Assembly: GCA_022822745.1 (NCBI GenBank)
Contig: JAJEAO010000005.1
Location: 17,831 to 81,830, forward strand
Length of the DNA stretch: 64,000 nt
From: Acidobacteriota bacterium
Lineage (GTDB): Bacteria > Acidobacteriota > Vicinamibacteria > Marinacidobacterales > Marinacidobacteraceae
Direction of reading: 5' to 3'
The translations under genes and the position numbers were made by a program. The stretch's first letter is position 1. Each line of letters opens with the position of its first letter. Of this stretch, positions 1 to 13,333 are shown piece by piece. The notes under the pieces were generated by a model. That model was given only the letters and a program-made list of their open reading frames with translations, searched no databases and had not been told where the DNA came from.

Positions 1-5
1 GGAAT

Positions 6-1928
6 GTGATCGCCGGCAACTCGCTCTTCGGCGTGGCTGACCGAGACTTGGTGATCTCGCCGGGGACCTTCGAGGCCGCCGGGCTCCGCCAGTGGCTTGA
101 TCTCGCGAGCGACGCCGCGGCCGAAGTTGCTGAAGGGCTTGATCGTACGAGGCAGGAGTATTCCCGAAGTGAGGCAGCCGACAAGAGCGCCAAGAGGGCT
201 CTGTCGGGGCTTGCCCGCGTGTACGACTTGTGGGCGGCGGAGTCGTTCGGCCACTTCGGCGGACGCCACCTGATCGAGCGCTACGGTGCAAGGATTGCTA
301 CGGAGACGTTGCACCCGGACCGGGAGGCGGAGATCGCGGCGGCGCAGGCCACCGCGGAGAAACACCGGTTCCTCCACTGGCCGCTGGCTTTCCCGCTCCA
401 GTTCCACCGGGACCGACCCGGATTCGACGCCGTGGTCGGGAATCCGCCATGGGAGGAGGTCACGATTGAGGAACTCGGGTTCTATGTGCTCTACCAGCCG
501 GGGCTGAACTCGATGCCGGAGGCGGAACGGGAACAGGCGATCACCGAACTTCTCCAGCGGCGGCCGGAACTAACGGAGCGCTTCGAAGACGAACAGGAGC
601 GCGTCGCAGCGGCGCGCGCCGCGCTCGCGGCTAGCGGCTATGCCTCGACCGTGGGCGACCCGGATCTCTACAAGTCCTTCTGCCAGCGCTACCGGGCGCT
701 CCTGCGGCAGGGCGGACGCCTGGGCGTGGTGCTGCCTCGGTCGGCATTCAACGCGAAGGGATCAAGGGCTTTCCGGAAGTGGCTCCATCGTGAGACCACG
801 GTCGAGCGCGTGGACTTCCTGCTGAACAAGGGGCGTTGGGCTTTCGACGCGGAGCCGCGCTATTCGGTGGGCCTCCTTGCCGCCCGAAACCAGGTGCCCG
901 CCTCGAAGCACCGCATCGAGATCGCGGGCGTGGCGGACTCTCCGGAGGCCTGGGAGGAGCAAGGGACGCTCCCGGGGGTCCGCATCCCCGACTCGGGGCT
1001 CGGGCCGGACCTCCAGATCCCGCTGCTCGAATCCCAGGCGGAAGCCGATCTTCTCGCCAAGCTGCGTCGGGGGACGCCGTTCCCGCTCGGCGGCGGCCGC
1101 TGGCGCTGCTTCGCCGTCCGGGAACTCGACGAGACGAACGACAAGCGGCTCTGGAACGCCGTCGTCCGGTCCGACGCGACGCTTCTGCCCCTGTGGAAGG
1201 GTGAGAGCTTCGATCAGTACGACCCGCACGGGGCCGGGGAGCGGCGCTGCCCGGACAGCGAGGCGCTCCAACGGAAGATCCGGAAGCCGCGTCCGGGCAG
1301 CGGCCAGCTTGTCGGCAAGAAGATAAGCCTTGCAGTGCGGCGGCGGGCGGTGCTTCGAGAACTCCAACGGGCGCGGGTGGCATTCCGGGATGTGACGAAC
1401 CGCACGAACTCACGAACGGTCCTTGCTTGCTTGGTCCCACCGCGAACGCTCCTGACGAACACGGCTCCCTATGTTGCTTTCGTGGGCGAGGAGGAGATCG
1501 CTCAGTCTGCTGCACTGGGTGTGATGAACAGTCTGACATTCGACTGGCAGGCGCGGCGATACGTCGAAATCCACATGAGCTTCTTCCTGCTGAACTCACT
1601 CACGATCCCCAACCTTGATCACGAGGACTTCGCAGCCATCGCGGAATCCGCAGCACGGCTCTCCGCGCCAGACGAGCGCTTTGCCGACTTTGCCGCTACC
1701 ACCGGGGTCGAGGTCCGCGACCTGTCCGAGGAGGAGCGACAGCGCCTCCGGGTTGACATCGACGCCCGGGTGGCGCGCGCCTGGAATCTGAACCTGGACG
1801 ACCTCGAAGTCATGCTCGACGACTTCACGGAGCGGGCCGTTCCGCCTGCCTACCGCACTGCCCTTCGCCGCAGGCTGCGAGAGCTTCGCGACGGGGCCGA
1901 TTCGGGCGCCGCCGGGAGGACTCCCTGA
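6..1928 (+). CDS. N6-adenine DNA methyltransferase, C-terminal ~640 aa (5-prime end cut by the window edge); DrmMI / PglX / type IIG-like
   Basis: ORF is open to the window start. Motif IV DAVVGNPPW (gamma-class amino-MTase) lies ~140 aa in, followed by a long C-terminal region. Its TGA stop overlaps the next ATG (TGATG). GC3 bias is weaker than in neighbouring native genes. Confidence 0.7.
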   Translation: MIAGNSLFGVADRDLVISPGTFEAAGLRQWLDLASDAAAEVAEGLDRTRQEYSRSEAADKSAKRALSGLARVYDLWAAESFGHFGGRHLIERYGARIATETLHPDREAEIAAAQATAEKHRFLHWPLAFPLQFHRDRPGFDAVVGNPPWEEVTIEELGFYVLYQPGLNSMPEAEREQAITELLQRRPELTERFEDEQERVAAARAALAASGYASTVGDPDLYKSFCQRYRALLRQGGRLGVVLPRSAFNAKGSRAFRKWLHRETTVERVDFLLNKGRWAFDAEPRYSVGLLAARNQVPASKHRIEIAGVADSPEAWEEQGTLPGVRIPDSGLGPDLQIPLLESQAEADLLAKLRRGTPFPLGGGRWRCFAVRELDETNDKRLWNAVVRSDATLLPLWKGESFDQYDPHGAGERRCPDSEALQRKIRKPRPGSGQLVGKKISLAVRRRAVLRELQRARVAFRDVTNRTNSRTVLACLVPPRTLLTNTAPYVAFVGEEEIAQSAALGVMNSLTFDWQARRYVEIHMSFFLLNSLTIPNLDHEDFAAIAESAARLSAPDERFADFAATTGVEVRDLSEEERQRLRVDIDARVARAWNLNLDDLEVMLDDFTERAVPPAYRTALRRRLRELRDGADSGAAGRTP

Positions 1929-4900
1929 TGGCTCGGCCCGAGCTCGTGGACAACCGCGGGGCGAACACTCACGCCCACGCCCTCCACGCGCTCGCGGACG
2001 ACCACGATTCACGCCACCCGCTGGCCGCGGCCACCGCGTACTTCAACCTCATCGGGCTCCACCACCTCGCGCAGGCTACGCGGGATGGGCGATCCGGGCG
2101 GCTCCTCCTCGGCACTTCCCGCCCCACTGGAGGGAAGTCCAGCACCCTCGACGTCTTCGGCGCCTGCATGGAGGAGTTTCGTCGGGATCGAGACCACGCC
2201 TCGTTCCCGCCCAGCCGCGCCTCGAAGACTCTGAGCGACGTGCTGGCCTGGCTTCAGCGCGACGACATCGAGGTCCGCCGCTATCTGAAGCAGTTCCTTC
2301 ACGGCAAGGCTTATCTTCTTGGCGAGATCGCTGACGCCCGCGCGGCGCTGGTCACCTCGGCGAACCTGACCGCCGCCGGACTCGCCCGGAACCTCGAGCT
2401 GGGCGTCGCCGACTACCAGCCCCACGTCGCCCGCAGCGCCATCGAGTGGTTCGACCGTCTGTGGGAGGAGGCGCCCGATTTCAAGGGAGACCTCATCGAA
2501 ATTCTCGGCAGCGCCCGTCTGAATCTGGAGGATCCGTGGACGGTCTTCCTCCGGGCGCTGCTCGAACTCTTCGGGGACGACGAGGAGGAGATCGCCAAGC
2601 CCGGGAAGGTGAACCTCGCGCCGTTCCAGTGGGACGGCTATCGCCGCGCTCTCAAGATCCTCCGCCGCCACCACGGCGTGGTCTTCGCCGACGGCGTGGG
2701 CACCGGCAAGACCATGATCGGCCTCGCCTTCCTCGAGGAGTACGCACTGCGCCGGGGCCAGCTCGCGATCGTCATCGCCCCCGCCCAGCTCCGCGAGCGC
2801 TGGCAGGACGACATTGCCCAGCGTGGACTGCCAGCCAAGGTGCTGAGCTACCACGAGCTGGCCTCCGACATCCAGCTCGCCCCGAAGGATGTCGCGAACC
2901 GCAAGCGCCACCTCTCCGCCGACAAGGACGCCTACCGCCTCGTCCTCGCCGACGAGGGCCACGCGTTCCGCAACCCGGGCACGACCTGGCACCGGGCGCT
3001 CTCCCGCCTGCTCGGCGGCGAGCCGAAGGATCTGGTGCTCCTCACCGCGACGCCGATCAACAACGGTCTCTGGGACCTCTACCACCTGGTCATGGCGTTC
3101 GCCCGCCACGATCGGGCCTTCGCCAACTGGCGTATCCCCTCGCTCCGGGAGCTGTTCGAGCGCGCCGGAGCGAGTGCGCGGAAGGCCGCGGATCTCGACC
3201 CCGATGTTCTCTTCGCGCTCGCGGATCTGGTGAGCGTCCGCCGTGATCGGCGTTTCCTCGTCGAGCGCTACAAGGGCGAGACTTTCCCCGATGGCACGGT
3301 CGTCCGCTTCCCCGAGCCGGAGCTGCATACCGCCCGCTACGACCTCGATTCGGCGGATCCCGGTCTCGTCCCCACGATCACCGAGGCGATCGAGGGGCTC
3401 ACCATGGCCCGTTACGTCCCGAGCCGCTATCTCGTCGCCGGGAACGAGTCGAAGCGGGAGGGGCAGCTTTCCGGGCTGCTCCGCTCCGGCATCCTGAAGC
3501 GCTTCGAGTCCTGCTGGCATGCCTGCCGGCTCACCGTGAAGAGGATGATGCGGGCGCACGAGGCCTTTCTCGTGGCCTGGGACGAGGGTTGGGTGCTCGG
3601 AGGGCAGGCGCTCAAGGAGGCGGCGGAAGGAGAGGAAGAGGTTTCGGGCCTGGCCGAGACGCTGGCCGAGGACAGCTTCGGCGACGATCGGATCCCCTCG
3701 TCCGAGTTCGATCCCTCCTACCGGAAGGACGTCGAGCGCGATCTGGCCGCGCTCCGGAAGATCGAGGCGCGGCTCGACCGGCTGACCCCGGAGGACGACC
3801 CGAAGCTGGCCTGCCTCACCGACCTGATCGAGAAATCGCCATCGCAGAAAGTCATCGTCTTTTCCACCTTCGCCGACACGATCCGATATCTCGACGAACA
3901 GCTCCCGGAGAAGATCAGGGGCCGCGAGCGCATCACCGTGATCGGCGACGAGGCGGACCCGGACCAGCGCACCGAAATGCTCTCCCGGTTCGCTCCGAAG
4001 TCCGTGATCGGTCCGGACCATCTGCCCGAGGACGGCGAGGTGGATCTGCTCCTCAGCAACGATGTCCTCTCCGAAGGTCAGAACCTCCAGCAGGCCGCCG
4101 CGGTCATCAGCTACGACATGCCGTGGAACCCGCAGCGCGTCGTTCAGCGCTACGGGCGGGTCATCCGGCTGAAGAGCGAGCACAGGCGCGTCTTCCTGAC
4201 CACCATGCTTCCCGCGCCGGGAGAACTCGAACCCATCCTGAAGCTGGAAGTCGCCATCCGACGCAAGATGGCGGCGGCGGGCGTTTACGGGATGGAGGTG
4301 GAGGTCGTCGAGGATGCGCCGGCGTCGGAAGTCCGCGCCTTCGCCGATCGCCTCCAGGCGGGAGACGCTTCGCTCCTCGACGAGGCCGCGGATGGCGACG
4401 AGGGCCAGTTGTTCAGCGGCGAGGGACTTCGCGCCGAGCTGGCCCGCTGGATCCACGAAATGGGGATCGAGAAGTTGAAGAAGCTGCCGTGGGGGACGGG
4501 AGCGGTGTTCCAACGCCAGTCCGACGACCCGCGCCGCGAGGAGGGGGGCTGGTTCTTCGCCTGCCGCACGCGAAGGGACGAGCGCTACTGGCGCTGGGTG
4601 GAGCGCGATCGTTCCACCCGACCCGAGCCCGACGCCGCCATCCTGCGCCGCATCCACCCGCGCGGTGCGGAGGGCCTGATGGACGGCGACTACCAGCCCG
4701 ACGAAGCGCTCGAAGCGGCCTGGAGCGCAGCGGCGGCCTCCATCGTCTCCGAACACAACGGACTGGTGGAGGCGGCGGAAGACGGTGATTCCATCGGTCC
4801 GCTCCAGACCTGGGCGATCCGGGACATCCTCGAGGATCCGGATGTGCGCCTGCCCGACGGGGCGAACGCTGCCGCCGAAGCGCTCGCAGTCGGACGCGGC

Positions 4901-5107
4901 ACGATCGTCCGCCGCGCGCTGGGCGCGATCCGGAAGCGCGTGGAGAGCCGGGAGATCACGAGAGACCGCGCGGCCATCGAGATCGTGGAGCTGGTGCGAA
5001 CCGAAGGGCTGCGGCCGGTGGAGGAGCTCGCGCGACTCGAACCGATCACCGAGGAGGATCTGGGCGTCGTCTGCTGGATGGAGATCCGCCCCACCGACCC
5101 GACCTGA
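1928..5107 (+). CDS. PLD/HKD-type nuclease domain fused to an SNF2-family (DEGH-box) helicase
   Basis: N-terminus has FLHGKAYLL...ALVTSANLTAAGL, which parallels the HxK...GSxN PLD/Nuc motif. Helicase motifs: GVGTGKT (I), LVLADEGHAFRN (II), LLTATPINNGLWDLYHL (III), VIVFSTF (IV), LLSNDVLSEGQNLQ and QRYGRVIRL (V/VI). Confidence 0.85.
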   Translation: MARPELVDNRGANTHAHALHALADDHDSRHPLAAATAYFNLIGLHHLAQATRDGRSGRLLLGTSRPTGGKSSTLDVFGACMEEFRRDRDHASFPPSRASKTLSDVLAWLQRDDIEVRRYLKQFLHGKAYLLGEIADARAALVTSANLTAAGLARNLELGVADYQPHVARSAIEWFDRLWEEAPDFKGDLIEILGSARLNLEDPWTVFLRALLELFGDDEEEIAKPGKVNLAPFQWDGYRRALKILRRHHGVVFADGVGTGKTMIGLAFLEEYALRRGQLAIVIAPAQLRERWQDDIAQRGLPAKVLSYHELASDIQLAPKDVANRKRHLSADKDAYRLVLADEGHAFRNPGTTWHRALSRLLGGEPKDLVLLTATPINNGLWDLYHLVMAFARHDRAFANWRIPSLRELFERAGASARKAADLDPDVLFALADLVSVRRDRRFLVERYKGETFPDGTVVRFPEPELHTARYDLDSADPGLVPTITEAIEGLTMARYVPSRYLVAGNESKREGQLSGLLRSGILKRFESCWHACRLTVKRMMRAHEAFLVAWDEGWVLGGQALKEAAEGEEEVSGLAETLAEDSFGDDRIPSSEFDPSYRKDVERDLAALRKIEARLDRLTPEDDPKLACLTDLIEKSPSQKVIVFSTFADTIRYLDEQLPEKIRGRERITVIGDEADPDQRTEMLSRFAPKSVIGPDHLPEDGEVDLLLSNDVLSEGQNLQQAAAVISYDMPWNPQRVVQRYGRVIRLKSEHRRVFLTTMLPAPGELEPILKLEVAIRRKMAAAGVYGMEVEVVEDAPASEVRAFADRLQAGDASLLDEAADGDEGQLFSGEGLRAELARWIHEMGIEKLKKLPWGTGAVFQRQSDDPRREEGGWFFACRTRRDERYWRWVERDRSTRPEPDAAILRRIHPRGAEGLMDGDYQPDEALEAAWSAAAASIVSEHNGLVEAAEDGDSIGPLQTWAIRDILEDPDVRLPDGANAAAEALAVGRGTIVRRALGAIRKRVESREITRDRAAIEIVELVRTEGLRPVEELARLEPITEEDLGVVCWMEIRPTDPT

Positions 5108-5183
5108 CCCGGTCGAGCCGGCGTCGGCGGCCTGCAAGGGTTGCCGCGGGGCTATCCTCACGCTTCCCGTCGGAAGTTCCGCG

Positions 5184-6389
5184 ATGAAGGTCCAGGTGAA
5201 TCCCGAGCTCCTTGTGTGGGCCCGGCGCACGGCGGGACTGGGGGTCGAGGAGGCGGCTCACCTGCTCCGGTTCGAGGACACCCGACGCCGAACAGCGGCG
5301 GAGCGGCTGGCCAGTCTCGAACGAGGGGCCGAGGCGCCGTCCCTTTCGGTGCTCGATCGGATGGCGCATCGCTACCACCGGCCTGTCCTCGCGTTCTACC
5401 TCGAGCACGCTCCCGAAGAAGAGGAGAGCGCCGCGCGGCTTCGTTCCGCCCCCGGAGACCTGACTCGCCGGGAGGCCGGCTTGCTGGATGCCTTTGTCCG
5501 ACGAATGCGCGAGCGCCAGCGTCTGCTGCGTGAGGCGCTCGAGGACGGTGAAGAGGGTGAGGTCGTCCCGTGGGTGGGGTCGGCGGATGTCCGCGACGGC
5601 GCGACGGCGCTCGCGGCTCGCATCCGTCGCCTTCTCGATCTGAATCTCACCGAGTTCCGCTCCCGGCGCGATGCGAGAGCAGGGTTCGAGTGGCTCCGGG
5701 GGAAGGTCGAGACCACCAGAGCGGTTGTTCTGCTCGAAGGCGACCTGGGCTCCCACCAGACGGCGCTAGAGCTCCACGTATTCCGCGGCCTCTCGCTTGC
5801 CGATCCGGTGGCGCCATTCATCGTCATCAATCCGGGGGACGCGGACGCTGCCTGGTCGTTCACGCTGCTCCACGAGCTGACGCACCTCGTTCTGGGACAG
5901 AGCGAGTTCGCGAGTCTGACGAGCGACGACCGCATCGAACGTCTTTGCAACGACGTGGCTGGGGAGCTGCTCGTGCCAGCGCGGGACCTTCAGGGACTCG
6001 GGCCGATGCGCGCACGCGATCTGGATCAGCTCCGCGACAGCATCTCGGATCTGGCCCAAGCCTGGCGCGTCAGCCGTTCGATGGTCGCCTACCGCATGTT
6101 CCGCACCGGGCTCATTCACCGCGATGAATTCCTATCGCTCCTGAGCACCTTCGAGCGGCGCTGGCAGAAAGCCAAGGAAGCTCGAAGAGCCGCGAATCGT
6201 ACGCGCCCGAGTGGTCCGGATTTCTATGCGGTGCGGCGCTATCGCTTGGGAAAGGCGATGATCCGACGGACGAAACGGTTGTGGCGGAGCGGGTCGTTGT
6301 CCACGACAGAGGCCGGGCGGATCCTCGGTGTGCGTGGCGGCAGCGTTCACGCTCTACTGGATGTCGCGAGCGAGCGAGCACGACGTTGA
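5184..6389 (+). CDS. HTH (XRE-like) + ImmA/IrrE-family zinc metallopeptidase regulator
   Basis: ATG at 5184 lies inside the longer track ORF 4785..6389, whose upstream part overlaps the helicase 3-prime end and looks non-coding. HEXXH motif in LLHELTHLVLGQSEF; helix-turn-helix-like N-terminal segment. Confidence 0.75.
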   Translation: MKVQVNPELLVWARRTAGLGVEEAAHLLRFEDTRRRTAAERLASLERGAEAPSLSVLDRMAHRYHRPVLAFYLEHAPEEEESAARLRSAPGDLTRREAGLLDAFVRRMRERQRLLREALEDGEEGEVVPWVGSADVRDGATALAARIRRLLDLNLTEFRSRRDARAGFEWLRGKVETTRAVVLLEGDLGSHQTALELHVFRGLSLADPVAPFIVINPGDADAAWSFTLLHELTHLVLGQSEFASLTSDDRIERLCNDVAGELLVPARDLQGLGPMRARDLDQLRDSISDLAQAWRVSRSMVAYRMFRTGLIHRDEFLSLLSTFERRWQKAKEARRAANRTRPSGPDFYAVRRYRLGKAMIRRTKRLWRSGSLSTTEAGRILGVRGGSVHALLDVASERARR

Positions 6390-6593
6390 TCTATCTTCTG
6401 GACGAGAACTTCGGACTGGAGGAATCCGTGACGCATGAATGGGAAGGGCTCCGCGATGACAAAGCTGATTCTGCTGTGGCGCGTCAATCAGGGTGAGACG
6501 AGCGCGACAAACAGGATAGGACGGAGTCGGACGGTCGGCGGAGTCGTGAGCCGTCGTTGAGGGGGCTCGCGACAAGGACGACCGGACGGCGCT

Positions 6594-6632: not shown

Positions 6633-9600
6633 GTGTGTGGCGCGCCGGGATGGGCGTGTTGGCGGGAGGGTGAAGCCGGGTTGGAGGCGGGGCGCATACC
6701 ATCGCGCCATGTCGTGGCGGCGCGGGGGGAAGCGCAGGGCGCGGATCCGCGAGAGGGCGGCTCCGTGACGCAACTCGGTGTGCGTCCGGACTCGGGCCGC
6801 AGCCGGTCCGAGCCGGCGTCATCCACCCCCGGCGTTCTGGTCCAGGAGCTGGATCGCATCGCGCGGGAAACCGGGAGAGCCCGCAAGATCCTGATCGGTC
6901 GCACGCGTGGCGAGGGGAAGGAGCTGCTGCGGCAAGTGGCGCTGCGTGGCCGCTCGTGGACGGGGTTCGAGGTCGAGACGTTACGACCCTTCGCTTCCCG
7001 AATCGCTGCGCCCCGCCTCGCCCGGGATGGCCTCGCGGTGATGGATTCGGTCGACGAGCACGCTCTCGTCGAGCGCGCCCTGGACTGCGTGATCCCGCGC
7101 TTCCCCGACTTCTCGGAACTCGCGGAGAAGACCGGGTTCCGGGAGGCGGTGCGCCACTCGGTGGCGGCGCTGCGAAACGCCGGCGTCCGGCCGGACGCCG
7201 TGGAGCCCCGTGGCGGAGATTCGCAGGGGTTCGACAAGACCTCGCTGGTGACGCAGGTTCTGGCGGCGTACGAGTCTCTGATGCGGGAGGCGAACCGAAC
7301 GGACACGGCGGGGATCCTCCGGAGGGCGACCCGGAGTCTCGACGGCGGCGAGCGCCCTCGCTGGCTCGCGGATGCCCGGATCTTCCTGCTCCCCGGGCTT
7401 CCCGACCGGGGACTCGAGAGAGGCTTTCTGGCTGCACTGCAGGGCCTCGGGGCGGAAGTTCTCCGGACCGACGCTGTGGAGGGCCTGAATGTCCCGGATG
7501 GAGTCCTCTGGGAGGCGGCGCCGCCGGAATCCTGGGGCAGTTGGCTCCACGCCGTGGATCGGTGCGAGGCGGGCGCTCGGTCCGACCGCATCGAGCTGTT
7601 CCGCGCGGCTTCGGTTTCCGACGAGTTGCGAGGTGTGCTGCGAAGGGCGCTGGACATGGGAGCCCGCTGGGATCAGGTCGAGATCGTCGCCGCCGACCCC
7701 TGGTCGTACGGGTCGGCGCTCCACGCGGTGGCTGAGGCGAAGGAGATCCCGGTCAACTTCGCGGTCGGCCTGCCGGTCGAGCGAACCCGTCCCGGAAGGG
7801 TCGTCTCGACCTGGTTCCGCTGGATCGAGAGCGGTTTCCAGGAGTCGCTCTTCCGGGCGCTCGTCGAGGCCGGCGATGTGACGCCGCCGGGGAAGACGCG
7901 ATCCAGGGGGTTGTATGGCCCGTCTCTTGCCCGGGCGCTGCGGCGGCTCCGGATCGGGTGGGGCAGGGAACGAACGCTCGAGAGGATCGAGCAGGGGCTC
8001 GAGGGCGTCAGCGCGCTTCGGCCCAAGCCCACCGAGAGCGAGGCGAAGTTCGAGGAACGCAGGAAGTGGGAGCGCAGGAAGTGGGAGCGCAGGAAGTTGA
8101 TGGCGCTGCGGGACCTTCTCCGTCCCGTGCTCGAGGCGACGCCGGCGACCGACGGTCAGGCCTCGCCGTCCGAGGTTGCGAGCGGCGTGAAGAGTCTGCT
8201 GAAGCGAGCGACAAGCGGCACCGCCACCGACGGCATGGCGAGGCAGCGGCTCCTGGGTCAACTCGATCGCATCGAGGCCACGTTGACGCGTCCCACCGAC
8301 TTCGCTTCGGCCTGCGCGATCGTCCAGGCCCGCCTCCAGATCCGCATCCCGGCGCCGGGAACGAAGGGGCTGGCGCGGTGGAGCACTGCGCCCGGCGCCA
8401 TCTACCTGACGGATCGGCGGCATGGAGGCGCCACCGGCCGCCGCTTCACCTTCATCGTCGGTCTCCATGCGCGGTCCGTGGTCGGCTCGCTCCACGAAGA
8501 TCCGCTGCTCGGCGACGAGGAACGGCGTCGCATCGGCGAGGGTGAACTGCCGCTCGCGTCTGACCGGGCGGATGAGGCCCGCTTCGACTTCGCCCAGCTC
8601 TTCGCTCGATTGCGGGGCACGGTCGTCGTCAGCTACCCGTGCTGGGATCCCGTCCAGAGCAGGAAACTGGCGCCGGCTCCCGAAATGCTTCAGGCGCTTC
8701 GGCTTCGCGAGTGCGATGCGGCCCTCGGCTTCGAGAAGCTGGAGAAGGCAATCGGCGTGGCCGAGTCGCGTGCGCCGCGTCAAGAAATCACCGCCGACCT
8801 CGACCGCAGCGATGCGTGGCTACGCGCTCTCACGAGGGAGCCAGGCCGATTCCGCGACGGACTGGCTGCCGTTTCGCGATCGTTTCCCCAGCTTGGCGCG
8901 GGCCTCGCCGTCGCTCGGGCCCTCGAGCGCGACGAGCCGTCGGTGCATACCGGTTTTCTCGGTGTCCATTCTCCGCCTCTCCCCTACCAGGATGTCTCGG
9001 GCTGGAAGTTCTCGGCGAGCGGTCTCGAGACCCTGGGTACCTGTCCCCGACGCTTTCTCTTCAAGTACATCATCAAGGCGTATCCGCCCGACGACCCCGA
9101 GTTCGATCCCGGCCGGTGGCTGAATGCGCTAAAGAAGGGAGGACTGCTTCATCGGGTGTTCGAGAAGACACTCAAAAAGGCTCGGTGCCGCGGGATCGAA
9201 CCTCTCGACTCCCAGTTTGAGATTCTTGCTCAAAAGGTGCTGGCGCTCGAGGGTCAGAAGGAGCTCCGGAACACACCTTCCCCGAGCCAGGCGGTGCACC
9301 GCTGGCAGATGGAGGAACTCCAGGAGGACGCTCGCTCCTTCGTCGAGATGATTCGCAAGCGGGAGCCGCAGTGGCTGAAGCTCGAATGGCCGTTCGGGCG
9401 GGACACGGATCTGAAGATCCAGGCCGGGCGTCGGTCCGTTCTAGTGCGCGGTTCCGTGGACCGGGTTGACGACCATGGCAGTCACCTGCTCGTGGTGGAC
9501 TACAAGACCGGCAGCGATTACAAGTACCAAGGTGAAACCAAGACCCACGACGGTGGACGGCGCCTGCAGCACTTCCTGTACGCCCGCGTGGTGGCCGACG

Positions 9601-9932
9601 AAATGGATCCTGTGGACGCCATGGAGTACCACTTTCCCACCGTCAAGGGCGAGAATCGGATCCGGCGCTACGAGGCCTCGCAACTCCACACAGGTGGCGA
9701 CCTCGTCGAAACTCTCCTGGAGGGCGTGGAGGAGGGATCGTTTCCCGCCACGGATGCCCATGAGGACTGCAGGTTCTGCGACTACAAGGAGAGCTGCGGC
9801 GTTCAGACCGACAAGCGGGGTAATGCGGTTGGCGGCATCCCCGATTGGACGAAACGCAACAAGACATCCGTCGCCGCGCTGGAGCGGTTGCGGAACGTGC
9901 GCGACTGGGACAAGAAGAAGACAGCTTCGTGA
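6633..9932 (+). CDS. addB: AddB-like helicase-nuclease subunit (RecB-type PD-(D/E)xK nuclease with C-terminal Cys cluster)
   Basis: 1099 aa. Degenerate P-loop-like GRTRGEGKE near the N-terminus. C-terminus has VDRVDDHG...LLVVDYKTGSDYKY...EDCRFCDYKESCG. Exact start uncertain: GTG at 6633, or GTG near 6765. Confidence 0.7.
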   Translation: MCGAPGWACWREGEAGLEAGRIPSRHVVAARGEAQGADPREGGSVTQLGVRPDSGRSRSEPASSTPGVLVQELDRIARETGRARKILIGRTRGEGKELLRQVALRGRSWTGFEVETLRPFASRIAAPRLARDGLAVMDSVDEHALVERALDCVIPRFPDFSELAEKTGFREAVRHSVAALRNAGVRPDAVEPRGGDSQGFDKTSLVTQVLAAYESLMREANRTDTAGILRRATRSLDGGERPRWLADARIFLLPGLPDRGLERGFLAALQGLGAEVLRTDAVEGLNVPDGVLWEAAPPESWGSWLHAVDRCEAGARSDRIELFRAASVSDELRGVLRRALDMGARWDQVEIVAADPWSYGSALHAVAEAKEIPVNFAVGLPVERTRPGRVVSTWFRWIESGFQESLFRALVEAGDVTPPGKTRSRGLYGPSLARALRRLRIGWGRERTLERIEQGLEGVSALRPKPTESEAKFEERRKWERRKWERRKLMALRDLLRPVLEATPATDGQASPSEVASGVKSLLKRATSGTATDGMARQRLLGQLDRIEATLTRPTDFASACAIVQARLQIRIPAPGTKGLARWSTAPGAIYLTDRRHGGATGRRFTFIVGLHARSVVGSLHEDPLLGDEERRRIGEGELPLASDRADEARFDFAQLFARLRGTVVVSYPCWDPVQSRKLAPAPEMLQALRLRECDAALGFEKLEKAIGVAESRAPRQEITADLDRSDAWLRALTREPGRFRDGLAAVSRSFPQLGAGLAVARALERDEPSVHTGFLGVHSPPLPYQDVSGWKFSASGLETLGTCPRRFLFKYIIKAYPPDDPEFDPGRWLNALKKGGLLHRVFEKTLKKARCRGIEPLDSQFEILAQKVLALEGQKELRNTPSPSQAVHRWQMEELQEDARSFVEMIRKREPQWLKLEWPFGRDTDLKIQAGRRSVLVRGSVDRVDDHGSHLLVVDYKTGSDYKYQGETKTHDGGRRLQHFLYARVVADEMDPVDAMEYHFPTVKGENRIRRYEASQLHTGGDLVETLLEGVEEGSFPATDAHEDCRFCDYKESCGVQTDKRGNAVGGIPDWTKRNKTSVAALERLRNVRDWDKKKTAS
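8058..8102 (+). repeat. In-frame tandem 15-bp repeat (cgcaggaagtgggag, 2 full copies + 1 partial) encoding ERRKWERRKWERRKL inside the addB-like gene
   Basis: Direct tandem copies read from the sequence. Confidence 0.6.
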
Positions 9933-12900
9933 GCGACGAGCGATCCGGACTCCGGTCGGTGACTGAGCGGTCCGTCACGCCTCGACGCCCAACGGCCCGG
10001 TACAGCGAACCCGGTGAGTCTCGCACCGACGTAGTCCCGGATGGGGAGGCGCGACGGCGCATCCGCAAGAACCTGGAGCGCAACTTCCTCGTGGAGGCGG
10101 GGGCGGGCTCAGGCAAGACGAAGTCGCTGGTGGACCGCATGGTGGCTCTGGTGAGCAGCGGCGCCTGTCAGGTGGAGGACATCGCAGCGGTTACCTTCAC
10201 GCGCATGGCTGCAGCGGAACTCCGCCAGCGCTTCCAGGAGGAACTGGAGAAGAAAATCGAGTGCGCGCACAAGCGCTCCCAAGCGGATGATCGGAAGCGC
10301 CTCGAACGAGCGCTCCGGAACATCCACCAGGCGTTTCTCGGAACCATCCACGCCTTCTGCGCCAGGCTGCTGCGCGAGCGACTGGTGGAGGCAGGGCTGG
10401 CTCCGGATTTCCGGGAACTGGAGGAGACCGAAGCGGAGCGCTCGAAGCAGGTGTTCTGGAACGACTTCCTGGAGAAGCTGGCGGTGAATGAGGATCCCGT
10501 TCTGCTCAAGCTCAAGCGCTTGGGGATCCGCCCCAGCACGCTTCAGGGAGCCTTCGGCAGCTTGGTCGAGAATCCGGACGTGGATTTCGTCGCCGAGAGG
10601 GTCGAGCGGCCGGATCCGGATGATGTCGCGGCGCTACGGGCCGAATTCGATGCTCTCCTCTACCGGGCAGAGGTGATGATGGAGGGCCTGCAGCCCAAGG
10701 AAGGGTGGAAGTCCCTTGGACAGGGATTCCGCACGGCGCTGTATTGGCACCGGTCGCCGAACTGGAAGGATCCGGCGGTCTTCTTTGAGGTCGTTGCCAA
10801 GTTTCACAGGATCAGAGAGAAGGAGACTGGGAAAATCCTGACGCTGAAACGGTGGGCCCGCACTCGCTCCGGCCAAAAAGAGGCGAAGAAGCTGGCCGAG
10901 GATTCCCAGGCCTTCGGGTGTAAGGCGGACAAACTGCTACGACAGTGGTGGGCTTACCGATATCCGGTGGCGGTGGATCTGGCCGGCAGGGCGGCGGAAG
11001 AGTACGCGTACGAGCGGAAGGCTCGGGGCGAGGTCACGTTCGACGATTTGCTCGTTTTCTCCACCGAGCTGCTTCGCAAGAACGACGAGGCGCGCCGCGA
11101 TCTGGGGCGCCGCTACCCGCGGATCCTCGTGGACGAGTTCCAGGACACCGATCCGCTGCAGGCCGAGATCCTGCTTCTCCTGTCCAGCGACCCCGAGTCG
11201 GGTGACGACTGGAGGAGAGTCACTCCCCGGCCCGGTTCGCTCTTCGTCGTCGGTGATCCCAAGCAGAGCATCTACCGATTCCGCCGCGCCGACATCTCGC
11301 TCTACGAGATGGTGAAGCGCCGCTTCAAGAAGTTCGGCGAGGTCCTGCGCCTCGAAGCGAACTTCCGCTCGCTGCCGGACTTCGAGAAACTGGTGGAGGG
11401 CGTCTTCAACGATGGGCAGCACTTCCCGAGCGCGAGTTCAGACCGCCAGGCCTCGTTTGCGCCGCTGCGGGCCCAGATGCAAGGGCGCGGTCTGCTGGCC
11501 GCCTACCGGGTTCAGGGCGCGAACCAGGACGATGTCGCCGAGGACGATGCCGCCCGCATCGCCTCTGAGATTTCGCGGCGGGTTCGATCGGGAGAGCGTC
11601 GGCCCGGCGCGTTCATGATCCTGACCGGGCGACGCAAGTTCCTGTCGGTTTATGTTCGAGCGCTCGAGAGGCGCAACCTCCCGGTCGAGGTGTCGGGCGC
11701 GGGCGTGGGTTTCGAGGACGAGTCGCGGGCGTTTCTGACGCTCTTCCGGTGTCTGGCGGACCCCCAGCACGAAGTGCACGTTCTTTCGGTGTTGACTGGG
11801 CCCTTCTTTGGCATGACCCTCGACCGCATCGTGCGGTACAGGGACAGCGGTGGCTCGCTTGTCGCCGATTGCCGGCCGGAGGGCGACTGCGAGGTCGCAG
11901 AGGCGATCGGGAGTCTCCACCGGTGGTGGTGTCTTGCGCGCCGCGAGCCCGCGGACATCACGGCCGAGAGGCTCGTGGAGAAGATCGGCCTCTTCCCCCT
12001 CGCGGCGGCGGCGCCCTTGGGAGGGATGCGTGCCGGGACTCTGGCGTACCTGCTGGACGCCGTGCGGGACCGGGCGCGAGCGGGCGATTCCTCGCTCGCG
12101 GGCGCCGTGGACGCCATGGAGACAGCGCTCGAAAACAAGGAAGCCGAACCGTCGTTGATCCCGACGCAGCCCGATTGCGTGCGCGTCCTGAATCTGCACC
12201 GCGCCAAGGGTCTCGAAGCTGACGTGGTCTTCCTGGCCGCGCCGTTTGGCGCCTCCGATCCCGATCCGCGGATGCACGTGTCGCGCCGTGAAAAGGGCAG
12301 CCCCGAAGGCCATCTGGCCGTCGGACTCAAGGTCCGATTTTCGTGGGAGACCATCGCGCAGCCCCTCGACTGGGAGGAGAAGAAGCGCAAGGAGGTGGAG
12401 TTCGCGAAGGCGGAACAGATCCGGCTGCTCTATGTCGCGGCGACGCGCGCAAGGCACGAACTCTGGATCGCGTGCCGCCCCGCCGAGATGTCCTGGCAGT
12501 CGAGGCCGTCACCGTGGGCGGATGTGGAGGAATGGGTGGTGGAGAGGGCCGGCAAGGACCGAGAGGCGGACTCGTCGTGCCACTGCGTTGTCCTGGACGA
12601 ACTGCCGAAGGACTGCGTGCCCAAGCCGGCCCGCCTGGAACCCGGGGAGGGTCTCACCGGGAGGATCAGGGCTGCCAAGGCGGGGGTGCGTCGGAGCCGC
12701 AAGGCGACCTACGCCGTGGAGAAGGTCACGGACCTGGCGAAACAGAACCGGCCGGAGGGAGAGGTCAACGTCTCCACGGAGCCGAGGGAGGCCGATACGG
12801 ACGACAAGGCTCACGCGCCGCTCGATCCCGGAACCAGGGGACGCGAATGGGGCACCGTAGTGCACGAGGTGCTTGCCGAGGCGGGCGAGGGGGTCGAAAG

Positions 12901-13333
12901 GGAAGCGCTGGAAGCGTTCGCCCGCGCCCGCCTCGTCGAGCGCGAGCGCCCGCTGGATCGGACCGGAGCGCCGACCGAGCTGGCCGCCCTCCTGGATCTG
13001 GTGGAGCGGGTGCGCGAGATGGACATTTGGAAGCGCGCCATGGCCAGCAAGGAACGCCACACCGAAATGCCCTTCGCCGTGCACCGGCCGCGCCCCGATG
13101 GCGGCCCCGGGGTTCTCGAAGGCGTGATCGACCTCGTCTTCCGGGAAGGGGACCACTGGGTGGTGGCCGACTACAAGACCGACCGTGGCGACGACCCCGG
13201 TTTTCTCGCCAGGACGGGCAGGCACCGCGCGCAGGTGGACCTCTACGCGGAATGCTGGGAACAACTCACCGGCGAAGTCGTCGGCGAGCGGGCGCTGGTT
13301 TACACCTCGCAGGGAAGGACCAGCACCTGGTGA
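9929..13333 (+). CDS. addA: AddA-like UvrD-family helicase with C-terminal RecB-type nuclease domain
   Basis: Walker A GAGSGKT, motif II ILVDEFQDTDPLQ, C-terminal VIDLVFREGDHWVVADYKTD (PD-(D/E)xK). Proposed GTG start overlaps the addB-like stop (GTGA). The track ORF opens at 9845, but that would overlap addB by 88 nt. Confidence 0.75.
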   Translation: MSDERSGLRSVTERSVTPRRPTARYSEPGESRTDVVPDGEARRRIRKNLERNFLVEAGAGSGKTKSLVDRMVALVSSGACQVEDIAAVTFTRMAAAELRQRFQEELEKKIECAHKRSQADDRKRLERALRNIHQAFLGTIHAFCARLLRERLVEAGLAPDFRELEETEAERSKQVFWNDFLEKLAVNEDPVLLKLKRLGIRPSTLQGAFGSLVENPDVDFVAERVERPDPDDVAALRAEFDALLYRAEVMMEGLQPKEGWKSLGQGFRTALYWHRSPNWKDPAVFFEVVAKFHRIREKETGKILTLKRWARTRSGQKEAKKLAEDSQAFGCKADKLLRQWWAYRYPVAVDLAGRAAEEYAYERKARGEVTFDDLLVFSTELLRKNDEARRDLGRRYPRILVDEFQDTDPLQAEILLLLSSDPESGDDWRRVTPRPGSLFVVGDPKQSIYRFRRADISLYEMVKRRFKKFGEVLRLEANFRSLPDFEKLVEGVFNDGQHFPSASSDRQASFAPLRAQMQGRGLLAAYRVQGANQDDVAEDDAARIASEISRRVRSGERRPGAFMILTGRRKFLSVYVRALERRNLPVEVSGAGVGFEDESRAFLTLFRCLADPQHEVHVLSVLTGPFFGMTLDRIVRYRDSGGSLVADCRPEGDCEVAEAIGSLHRWWCLARREPADITAERLVEKIGLFPLAAAAPLGGMRAGTLAYLLDAVRDRARAGDSSLAGAVDAMETALENKEAEPSLIPTQPDCVRVLNLHRAKGLEADVVFLAAPFGASDPDPRMHVSRREKGSPEGHLAVGLKVRFSWETIAQPLDWEEKKRKEVEFAKAEQIRLLYVAATRARHELWIACRPAEMSWQSRPSPWADVEEWVVERAGKDREADSSCHCVVLDELPKDCVPKPARLEPGEGLTGRIRAAKAGVRRSRKATYAVEKVTDLAKQNRPEGEVNVSTEPREADTDDKAHAPLDPGTRGREWGTVVHEVLAEAGEGVEREALEAFARARLVERERPLDRTGAPTELAALLDLVERVREMDIWKRAMASKERHTEMPFAVHRPRPDGGPGVLEGVIDLVFREGDHWVVADYKTDRGDDPGFLARTGRHRAQVDLYAECWEQLTGEVVGERALVYTSQGRTSTW

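Follow-up and report, generated by a model that had tools for sequence, protein, structure and literature searches.

The MANTIS systems (MtsA-D; also recorded as Gao_RL, or Gao_29, and as BREX-related (BR) type 2) combine an N6-adenine methylase that gives specificity with an effector in which an N-terminal HKD nuclease is joined to a superfamily 2 (SF2) motor of the Swi2/Snf2 type, and they have in addition a DUF499 AAA+ ATPase (MtsA) and a DUF3780 protein (MtsB). BR systems are defined by the presence of a DUF499 gene in the locus, and a RapA-like structure has been reported for their helicases (PMC12839542). Class 1 DISARM (DrmD, DrmMI, DrmA, DrmB, and DrmC) includes a large gamma-class N6-adenine methylase, an SNF2 helicase, and a phospholipase D (PLD) nuclease, and is defined by DrmA and DrmB. 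Here, we describe a gene pair with the same kinds of enzymes at the start of a 64,000-nt stretch of DNA from an Acidobacteriota bacterium (contig JAJEAO010000005.1, positions 17,831 to 81,830; G+C content 68%). We refer to this whole stretch as the window, and coordinates without a locus code are window positions. Positions 1-5107 likely contain the distal part of a conserved, phase-variable, ATP-dependent defense system of the restriction-modification (RM) type that consists of two genes and does not include the ImmA/IrrE gene behind them. Since the two genes travel without DrmA, DrmB, DUF499, or DUF3780, the system appears to be neither DISARM nor MANTIS, but a minimal relative of both.

The original prediction, made from the sequence of the window alone, described three consecutive genes on one strand, the first two coupled by a TGATG stop/start overlap, and interpreted them as an RM-like, methylation-based defense module. 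The three open reading frames (ORFs) and the overlap, at positions 1926-1930, are present (Table 1), and the RM-like interpretation is supported. To define which genes belong together, we compared related loci, coded L001 and so on. When one genome per species was scanned with a sequence pattern, 222 loci were found; 80 of them were kept, and L001 was added by exact match. These 81 related loci, with flanks of up to ±10 kb, and the first 20 kb of the window make up the 82 loci in which ORFs were called and all products clustered. Only two families are conserved, the PLD-SNF2 protein (82 of 82 loci) and a methylase of approximately 1,300 amino acids (78 of 82); the next most common cluster occurs in 10 loci. 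Those methylase-negative loci that were checked are either cut by a contig end or contain an ORF that the ORF caller missed. The methylase stop lies at most 20 nt from the helicase start in 51 of the 73 loci that could be scored, including nine with the same one-base overlap as in the window.

The pair is found across Acidobacteriota, Actinomycetota, Gemmatimonadota, Chloroflexota, and other phyla. More distant copies, in which both proteins are 32-37% identical along their entire length, are carried by plasmids of Euzebya pacifica, Rhodococcus erythropolis R138, and the archaeon Halalkalicoccus, and their RefSeq names are "hypothetical protein" and "helicase-related protein". The methylase partners on these plasmids (approximately 1,320-1,360 amino acids; L082 4904-8995, L083 4838-8875, and L084 5030-8983) are the ones called "hypothetical protein", despite detectable Eco57I/N6_Mtase domains. 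No DrmA/DrmB, DUF499, DUF3780, PglZ, or BrxC gene was linked to the pair in the clustering of the 82 loci or in the Pfam listings at the sampled loci L001, L085, and L086-L088. The partners are separated by other genes, over 0.5-9 kb, in approximately 19 loci, and the inserts that were sampled are of defense type: GmrSD, AbiEii-like AAA_21, an ABC-3C component (DUF2326), Schlafen/Fic-like proteins, Dam methylase, DUF5131, and DUF2335 (in L014, L015, L022, L031, L032, L034, L035, L037, L059, L065, L068, L072, L080, and L081). This arrangement resembles the embedded cargo of BREX and Hma loci. Because of these inserts, and because restriction-type genes flank the plasmid copies, the pair behaves as a defense-island anchor. 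Judged by its distribution and gene content, the pair is a widespread, unnamed two-gene system that probably serves RM-like defense. The original prediction did not recognize the arrangement from described systems, yet parts of it have precedents. Effectors that join HKD to SF2/SNF2 domains are known in the MtsD protein of Gao_RL/MANTIS and in BR type 2 (PMC12839542; bioRxiv 10.64898/2026.09.23.753747), and Cj0031-like "Type II RM" genes adjoining a PLD + SNF helicase gene are listed as targets of programmed inversion (PMC9881135, Table 3). That entry is the one passing mention of the bare gene pair that we found in the literature; we found no functional description or name for it.

The second gene of the pair encodes a nuclease and a complete SNF2 core in one polypeptide, as originally proposed. 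It is a true fusion, with PLDc_2, SNF2-rel_dom, and Helicase_C all scoring above their cut-offs. The PLD motif residues (H125-G-K127...S144-A-N146) and the ATPase motif residues (Walker A GVGTGKT at 256-262 and DEGH at 342-345) are invariant in an alignment of 27 homologues, and the protein has the features of both a PLD/HKD nuclease (HxK...(G)SxN and a PLD fold) and a SWI2/SNF2 motor (Walker A, DEGH, motif VI, and a bilobed core). The original prediction stated that it would be refuted by an N-terminal domain unlike PLD or by a type III Res protein with a C-terminal PD-(D/E)xK endonuclease. The N-terminal domain is PLD-like, no such Res architecture was found, and the ResIII Pfam match is confined to the ATPase core (amino acids 228-377), so that the N-terminal PLD domain is the only nuclease domain detected. 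More than 1,400 relatives of the helicase are present in the database, and the top 120 are mostly full-length (approximately 1,055 amino acids) with at least 54% identity. In phage genomes the family was not found, apart from distant SNF2 matches. PLD-SNF2 is presumed to be an ATP-driven restriction effector. In having a PLD nuclease and an SF2 motor it is similar to SauUSI and the CglI/NgoAVII-type enzymes, but SauUSI works alone as a modification-dependent enzyme and carries a target-recognition domain (TRD) itself, whereas the protein described here has an obligate methylase partner. An antisense ORF of 1,073 codons (2009-5230, minus strand) covers the whole helicase gene, as is expected of coding DNA that is rich in G+C at third codon positions (GC3).

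The link to DISARM that was originally proposed stands at the level of single components. In PADLOC, ORF2 matches DrmD (2e-27) and DrmC (1e-8, amino acids 102-181), and an orthologue of the methylase matches DrmMI (5.4e-68), although only in the catalytic core (amino acids 529-854). With this likeness, and with upstream DNA that lies beyond the window, the pair might be imagined as the last genes of a class 1 DISARM locus in which DrmC is fused to DrmD and DrmA and DrmB, perhaps with further genes, are encoded just upstream; the original prediction had placed DrmA/DrmB-like genes, if present, upstream of the window. We consider this extremely unlikely. Across the 81 related loci, which include the closest relatives (L001-L004, L058, and L002), no DrmA/DrmB-like gene recurs within approximately ±10 kb, with the window's own upstream DNA out of view, and the nearest relative carries Fic, a toxin-antitoxin pair, and metabolic genes upstream of the methylase. 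The helicase scores 112 bits against the NCBIfam model DISARM_DrmD NF038317, compared to a cut-off of 610, and 86 bits against NF038318, compared to a cut-off of 950. PLD and SNF2 are also fused here, in contrast to the separate DrmC and DrmD of class 1 DISARM.

A closer match to the helicase comes from MANTIS. The best PADLOC match, "C3a139 HKD+Snf2" (6.8e-41, 138 bits over approximately 680 amino acids, 104-785), corresponds to the MtsD architecture, and the top Foldseek match of the helicase model is RapA, as for the BR helicases. The pair could accordingly belong to MANTIS/Gao_RL (BREX-related type 2), with the DUF499 ATPase and the DUF3780 partner located at another site in the genome. 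This is very unlikely, since no DUF499- or DUF3780-like cluster occurs in any of the 82 neighborhoods and the definition of BR systems requires DUF499 in the locus (PMC12839542). Likeness of the helicase to the MANTIS/BR type 2 models is low, and the methylase, a PglX/MmeI-type protein of 1,320 amino acids with a long N-terminal region, matches a type IIG model over its full length and not the BR/BREX models.

The first gene was originally described as a large gamma-class N6-adenine methyltransferase with a target-recognition-like region. The class assignment holds, with a Pfam Eco57I match of 46 bits (cut-off 25) and an NPPW motif, but ORF1 is only the last 641 amino acids of a protein of approximately 1,320. 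Motif I, the S-adenosylmethionine site, and an N-terminal region of approximately 540 amino acids are upstream of the window, as indicated by full-length orthologues located directly 5' of the helicase gene in related loci. Based on motifs and fold, the product is a single-chain, PglX/MmeI-like gamma-class N6-adenine DNA methyltransferase of approximately 1,320 amino acids. The PADLOC type IIG model PDLC03620 (1,378 positions) covers an orthologue end to end (4e-119, amino acids 58-1305), and the PADLOC PglX models match the catalytic core alone, the best being PglX|PglXI (3.9e-10). An AlphaFold2 model of the first 889 amino acids of an orthologue (mean predicted local distance difference test (pLDDT) 87), in which the first 300 or so residues form two alpha/beta domains, is most similar in Foldseek to BREX PglX/BrxX, followed by DrdV, MmeI, and BsaXI. 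A search of the PDB with the full methylase sequence gave no match, and a profile search gave weak matches alone (CamA, BsaXI, and PglX). The methylase shares its fold and architecture, a gamma methyltransferase and TRD in one polypeptide, with the type IIG/IIL enzymes (MmeI, DrdV, and Cj0031) and with BREX PglX. However, the type IIG/IIL enzymes have an active N-terminal PD-(D/E)xK nuclease of their own, and BREX has a PglZ phosphatase and a BrxC ATPase that are absent from the conserved neighborhood here. The N-terminal 300 amino acids contain no invariant acidic or lysine residue in an alignment of 21 sequences that include the distant plasmid copies, and no nuclease Pfam domain is recorded for any family member. 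The label "type IIG" is for this reason a match of architecture only, and the nuclease function most likely comes in trans from the PLD-SNF2 partner.

One alternative is that the two proteins are independent enzymes that happen to be encoded together. One would be a type IIG/IIL restriction-methylase that is complete in itself, the other a modification-dependent (type IV) PLD-helicase like SauUSI. The end-to-end type IIG match and the MmeI/DrdV-like fold are consistent with this, as are the description of SauUSI as a type IV enzyme with PLD and SF2 domains (cited in bioRxiv 10.64898/2026.09.23.753747) and the uncharacterized C-terminal 260 or so amino acids of the helicase. We find this explanation unlikely given the near-obligate pairing with overlapping or abutting ORFs and the lack of a conserved nuclease triad in the methylase N-terminus. 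Furthermore, as described below, repeat-tract switches occur in the methylase gene only, and an inversion in the lineage of the window disables both genes at once.

Evidence for switching comes from simple-repeat tracts in the methylase gene. Thirteen frameshifting tracts are present in 295 kb of methylase genes (in 11 loci: L004, L013, L017, L022, L026, L031, L035, L044, L059, L060, and L078), compared to none in 269 kb of helicase genes and one in 1,071 kb of flanking DNA. They include poly-G/C of 10-52 nt, (AG)18, (TC)14, (CCAG)30, and (CCCA)16, and are located at methylase amino acids ~930-1270, mostly at ~1000-1085, just 5' of a conserved RELDETNDK motif. Both in-frame and out-of-frame states are found, and the breaks coincide with the tracts in Illumina as well as long-read assemblies. 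Near tracts in L017 (9150-9250) and L031 (6880-7040), a coding stretch for "ELHET.DK..W / RELDETNDK" is duplicated in tandem, with the frame shifted between the copies.

In the lineage of the window, a different type of rearrangement involves both genes. The strongest inverted repeat of the window, 26 nt with 92% complementarity, spans the gene junction, with its left arm inside the methylase gene and its right arm over the codons of the catalytic HKD motif in the nuclease domain (Table 1). An equal inverted repeat arose in only 2 of 300 Markov shuffles, and among the 84 loci compared the 26-nt repeat is confined to the window and L002, a Vicinamibacteria chromosome whose helicase DNA is 81% identical to that of the window. 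By blastn, positions 1309-2325 match the minus strand of the nearest relative species (L002, L086, L087, and L088; 70-71% identity) while both flanks match the plus strand, and tblastn is concordant. The crossover in L002 and L086-L088 lies within a 17-nt identical core, as the chimeric arm sequences of L002 show. The helicase arm codons AAG GCT TAT CTT CTT, four of them ending in T and with an F-to-L change, are unique among approximately 80 relatives, which otherwise have GCC/GCG TAC CTG TTC, and the peptide encoded by the methylase arm, VGKKISLAV, is not conserved in the alignment consensus of the wider family. Judged by codon choice, the arms of the repeat are co-adapted. L085, a partial relative, has neither the inversion nor the inverted repeat.

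The four gene pieces of the inverted state are free of in-frame stops, except for a 1-nt insertion in the helicase gene of L086. Between two inverted strains, the ratio of nonsynonymous to synonymous polymorphism (pN/pS) is 0.16 for the N-terminal part of the methylase, 0.13 for the helicase, and 0.36 for the inverted methylase C-terminus. Purifying selection on broken gene pieces fits the prediction of a reversible switch but does not prove reversibility. Long "fusion" ORFs are open in the inverted L002 locus because its DNA is GC3-rich, and such frames are not evidence of function. In sample ERZ21861969 the locus was assembled twice, as L086 and L088 (on a 3.8-Mb chromosome and a 15.8-kb contig), both times inverted. 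Their called genes are distinguished by a YoeB/Phd pair 5' of the methylase, indicating that strain variants coexist.

We propose that the ~1-kb inversion is probably an on/off switch in this lineage. A more specific possibility, which we put forward only tentatively and with some doubt, is a built-in, reversible switch whose arms lie within the coding sequences of two genes, one of them formed by the nuclease HKD codons, and which toggles both genes together. The system concerned would be a minimal relative of MANTIS and DISARM, with two genes and no need of an AAA+ loader. Inversion and poly-G phase variation are known for Cj0031 and PglX (PMC9881135). The inversions at Cj0031 and PglX swap copies of the target-recognition part of the methylase, whereas the one described here joins two different genes. 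As far as our literature search showed, switching by an inversion that extends over two genes, with nuclease catalytic codons as one arm, appears to be undescribed.

Several observations weigh against the switch, or against the two-gene system as a whole. All three assemblies of the relative species are inverted (the further two being 96.6% identical), and no switching within a population was seen. A recombinase near the locus was not found by tblastn in the window, L002, and L058 with the L001 tyrosine recombinase and an approximate Hin sequence as probes. Homology of 17-26 nt is short for RecA-dependent recombination, and the inversion could represent a single event. A hypervariable block, sought in 46 intact methylase orthologues from several phyla, was not found; the C-terminal third, the presumed target-recognition region, shows approximately the same conservation as the remainder of the protein, unlike classical hypervariable TRDs. 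The methylase N-terminus and the DNA upstream of the methylase gene are outside the window, and the helicase model is of moderate confidence (pLDDT 73). Finally, the methylation, nuclease, and anti-phage roles of the pair are predictions from gene content and comparison.

The repeat tracts and the inversion together suggest phase variation and methylase-directed restriction. In type III systems, switches in the mod gene are tolerated since restriction requires the methylase subunit. Recurrent OFF switches in the methylase alone would lead to self-restriction if the nuclease were able to find targets itself. We infer that cells could tolerate switches that are placed in the methylase gene, and never in the nuclease gene alone, only if the methylase is required for restriction, as it is in type III, BREX, and MANTIS systems. 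The type III Mod/Res systems are also similar in being two-gene operons of a methylase and a motor-nuclease with repeat-based phase variation in the methylase gene, and the dependence of restriction on the methylase subunit is probably shared. In composition they differ, with a Res protein that has a C-terminal PD-(D/E)xK domain and a dimer of beta-class Mod in type III, compared to an SNF2 protein with an N-terminal PLD domain and a single-chain gamma methylase here.

Phase-variable methylases can also serve as regulators, in phasevarions, and transcription complexes are the substrates of SNF2 proteins like RapA. The pair could on these grounds be an epigenetic phasevarion or a chromatin-type regulator rather than a defense system, with PLD-SNF2 functioning in DNA repair or remodeling. 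This is distinctly unlikely in view of the invariant PLD catalytic H, K, and N residues, the defense-island setting with embedded defense genes, and the plasmid carriage and patchy spread across phyla that are typical of defense genes.

For a two-gene RM-like system, the following mechanism can be envisioned. The methylase would recognize a short asymmetric motif and methylate one adenine of host DNA, like PglX, MmeI, and MtsC, and at unmethylated sites it would recruit or license PLD-SNF2. By analogy with MtsD and SauUSI, PLD-SNF2 would translocate on double-stranded DNA with ATP to reach or trigger cleavage, and its single-HKD domains may dimerize so that two chains share one active site. 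Such a single PLD active site, built by a dimer, is proposed for MtsD and SauUSI (bioRxiv 10.64898/2026.09.23.753747). Inversion breaks the methylase C-terminus and, in the same event, parts the PLD N-terminus from the catalytic HGK; the window carries the intact orientation (ON). The switch in other lineages would be a simple-repeat tract that shifts the frame of the methylase gene.

The third gene, originally regarded as a component or regulator of the module, is probably not part of the system. ORF3 matches Peptidase_M78 (47 bits, cut-off 22) and contains HELTH at amino acids 230-234, confirming the ImmA/IrrE peptidase assignment, whereas the helix-turn-helix (HTH) domain was seen weakly (PADLOC HTH_VI, E = 0.003). 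Its best NCBIfam match is the spr1629 repressor/antitoxin, at 27 bits compared to a cut-off of 335. ImmA homologues are found 3' of the pair in only 3 of the 82 loci, namely the window, L002, and L058, the latter two being among the closer relatives. In both L058 (11436-11930) and L002 (14073-14576), a gene for a PIN-like, toxin-like DUF4411 protein directly follows ImmA. Because this partner adjoins ImmA in both relatives, the ImmA gene of the window can be viewed as the remaining half of a separate spr1629-type pair. The DUF4411 partner appears to have been deleted from the window, and a probable remnant overlaps the ImmA stop (Table 1). ImmA is thus probably the antitoxin/repressor half of a neighboring, degenerate HTH-ImmA/DUF4411 module outside the system. 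CapH-CapP (HTH-ImmA) fusions adjoin actinobacterial DISARM (bioRxiv 10.1101/2022.04.27.489752), and by analogy a regulatory link between ImmA and the pair may exist, although conservation does not support one.

Behind ImmA, the window contains AddB/AddA-like repair genes, followed by an aldo-keto reductase and an amino-acid permease. The genes at 6633-13333 were considered as parts of the system and rejected, as they are the AddB/AddA-like repair genes. The reductase and permease are common to the window and L002, indicating the same chromosomal site. In place of the AddB/AddA-like genes, L002 (14061-16847; L002/L087) has DUF4411, DUF6364, an AbiEii/AbiEi pair, Pyr_excise, and a RidA-like gene. 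By this comparison the AddB/AddA-like pair is a local replacement relative to L002/L087, in either direction. Horizontal acquisition had been proposed on the basis of a lower GC3 than in flanking genes. This basis fails, as GC3 is 0.81 in the methylase, 0.87 in PLD-SNF2, and 0.76 in ImmA, compared to 0.81 and 0.82 in the adjacent AddB/AddA-like genes; the other long open frames of the window range from 0.75 to 0.93 and are mostly above 0.78.

Table 1. Features of the two-gene locus, its inverted repeat, and the adjoining ImmA/IrrE gene. Positions refer to the window unless a protein or locus is named.
Feature	Position	Strand	Description
ORF1	3..1928	+	3' part of methylase gene; frame open at window edge, stop at 1928
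Methylase 3' part	1..1928	+	C-terminal 641 amino acids with motif IV and C-terminal presumed target-recognition region; start upstream of window
NPPW catalytic motif IV	441..452	+	Invariant in 18 orthologues (N847-W850 of L001)
Methylase C-terminal third	870-1928 (amino acids ~990-1325)	+	Presumed target-recognition region
Inverted repeat, left arm	1312..1337		In methylase gene; codes VGKKISLAV
Segment between arms	1338..2299		962 nt: last ~195 methylase codons, gene junction, first 124 PLD-domain codons
Inverted repeat, right arm	2300..2325		On catalytic HKD codons (H125 G K A Y L L G)
Inverted repeat in L002	8983-9011 / 10001-10029 (L002)		26-29 nt repeat; segment opposite to window
ORF2	1928..5107	+	PLD(HKD)-SNF2 fusion, 1,059 amino acids
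Single-HKD nuclease	amino acids ~20-190 of ORF2	+	PLDc_2 at amino acids 44-179, 36.4 bits (cut-off 27)
SWI2/SNF2 ATPase core	amino acids ~225-790 of ORF2	+	SNF2-rel_dom at amino acids 240-389; Helicase_C at amino acids 626-748
Uncharacterized C-terminal region	amino acids ~800-1059 of ORF2	+	~260 amino acids
ORF3	5184..6389 (most likely start 5184)	+	HTH-ImmA/IrrE (M78, HELTH) protein, 401 amino acids
DUF4411 remnant, probable	6386..6409	+	First 8 codons LIYLLDEN over ImmA stop; weak match (E = 8.7), syntenic position

If two genes suffice for defense, the pair would be the simplest known member of the group of systems that combine a methylase with a PLD motor, given that MANTIS otherwise needs ATPases and DISARM needs DrmAB. 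It would then be a tractable system in which to study how a methylase of the PglX type passes unmethylated sites to a translocating nuclease. Because current tools mislabel the pair, with PADLOC calling type IIG on the methylase alone and RefSeq using uninformative names, its occurrence is under-counted, particularly among soil lineages and sponge symbionts. The hot spot of repeat tracts and the inversion across two genes would extend phase-variable restriction to high-GC environmental phyla, and they offer a genetic argument that restriction by this system may depend on its methylase.

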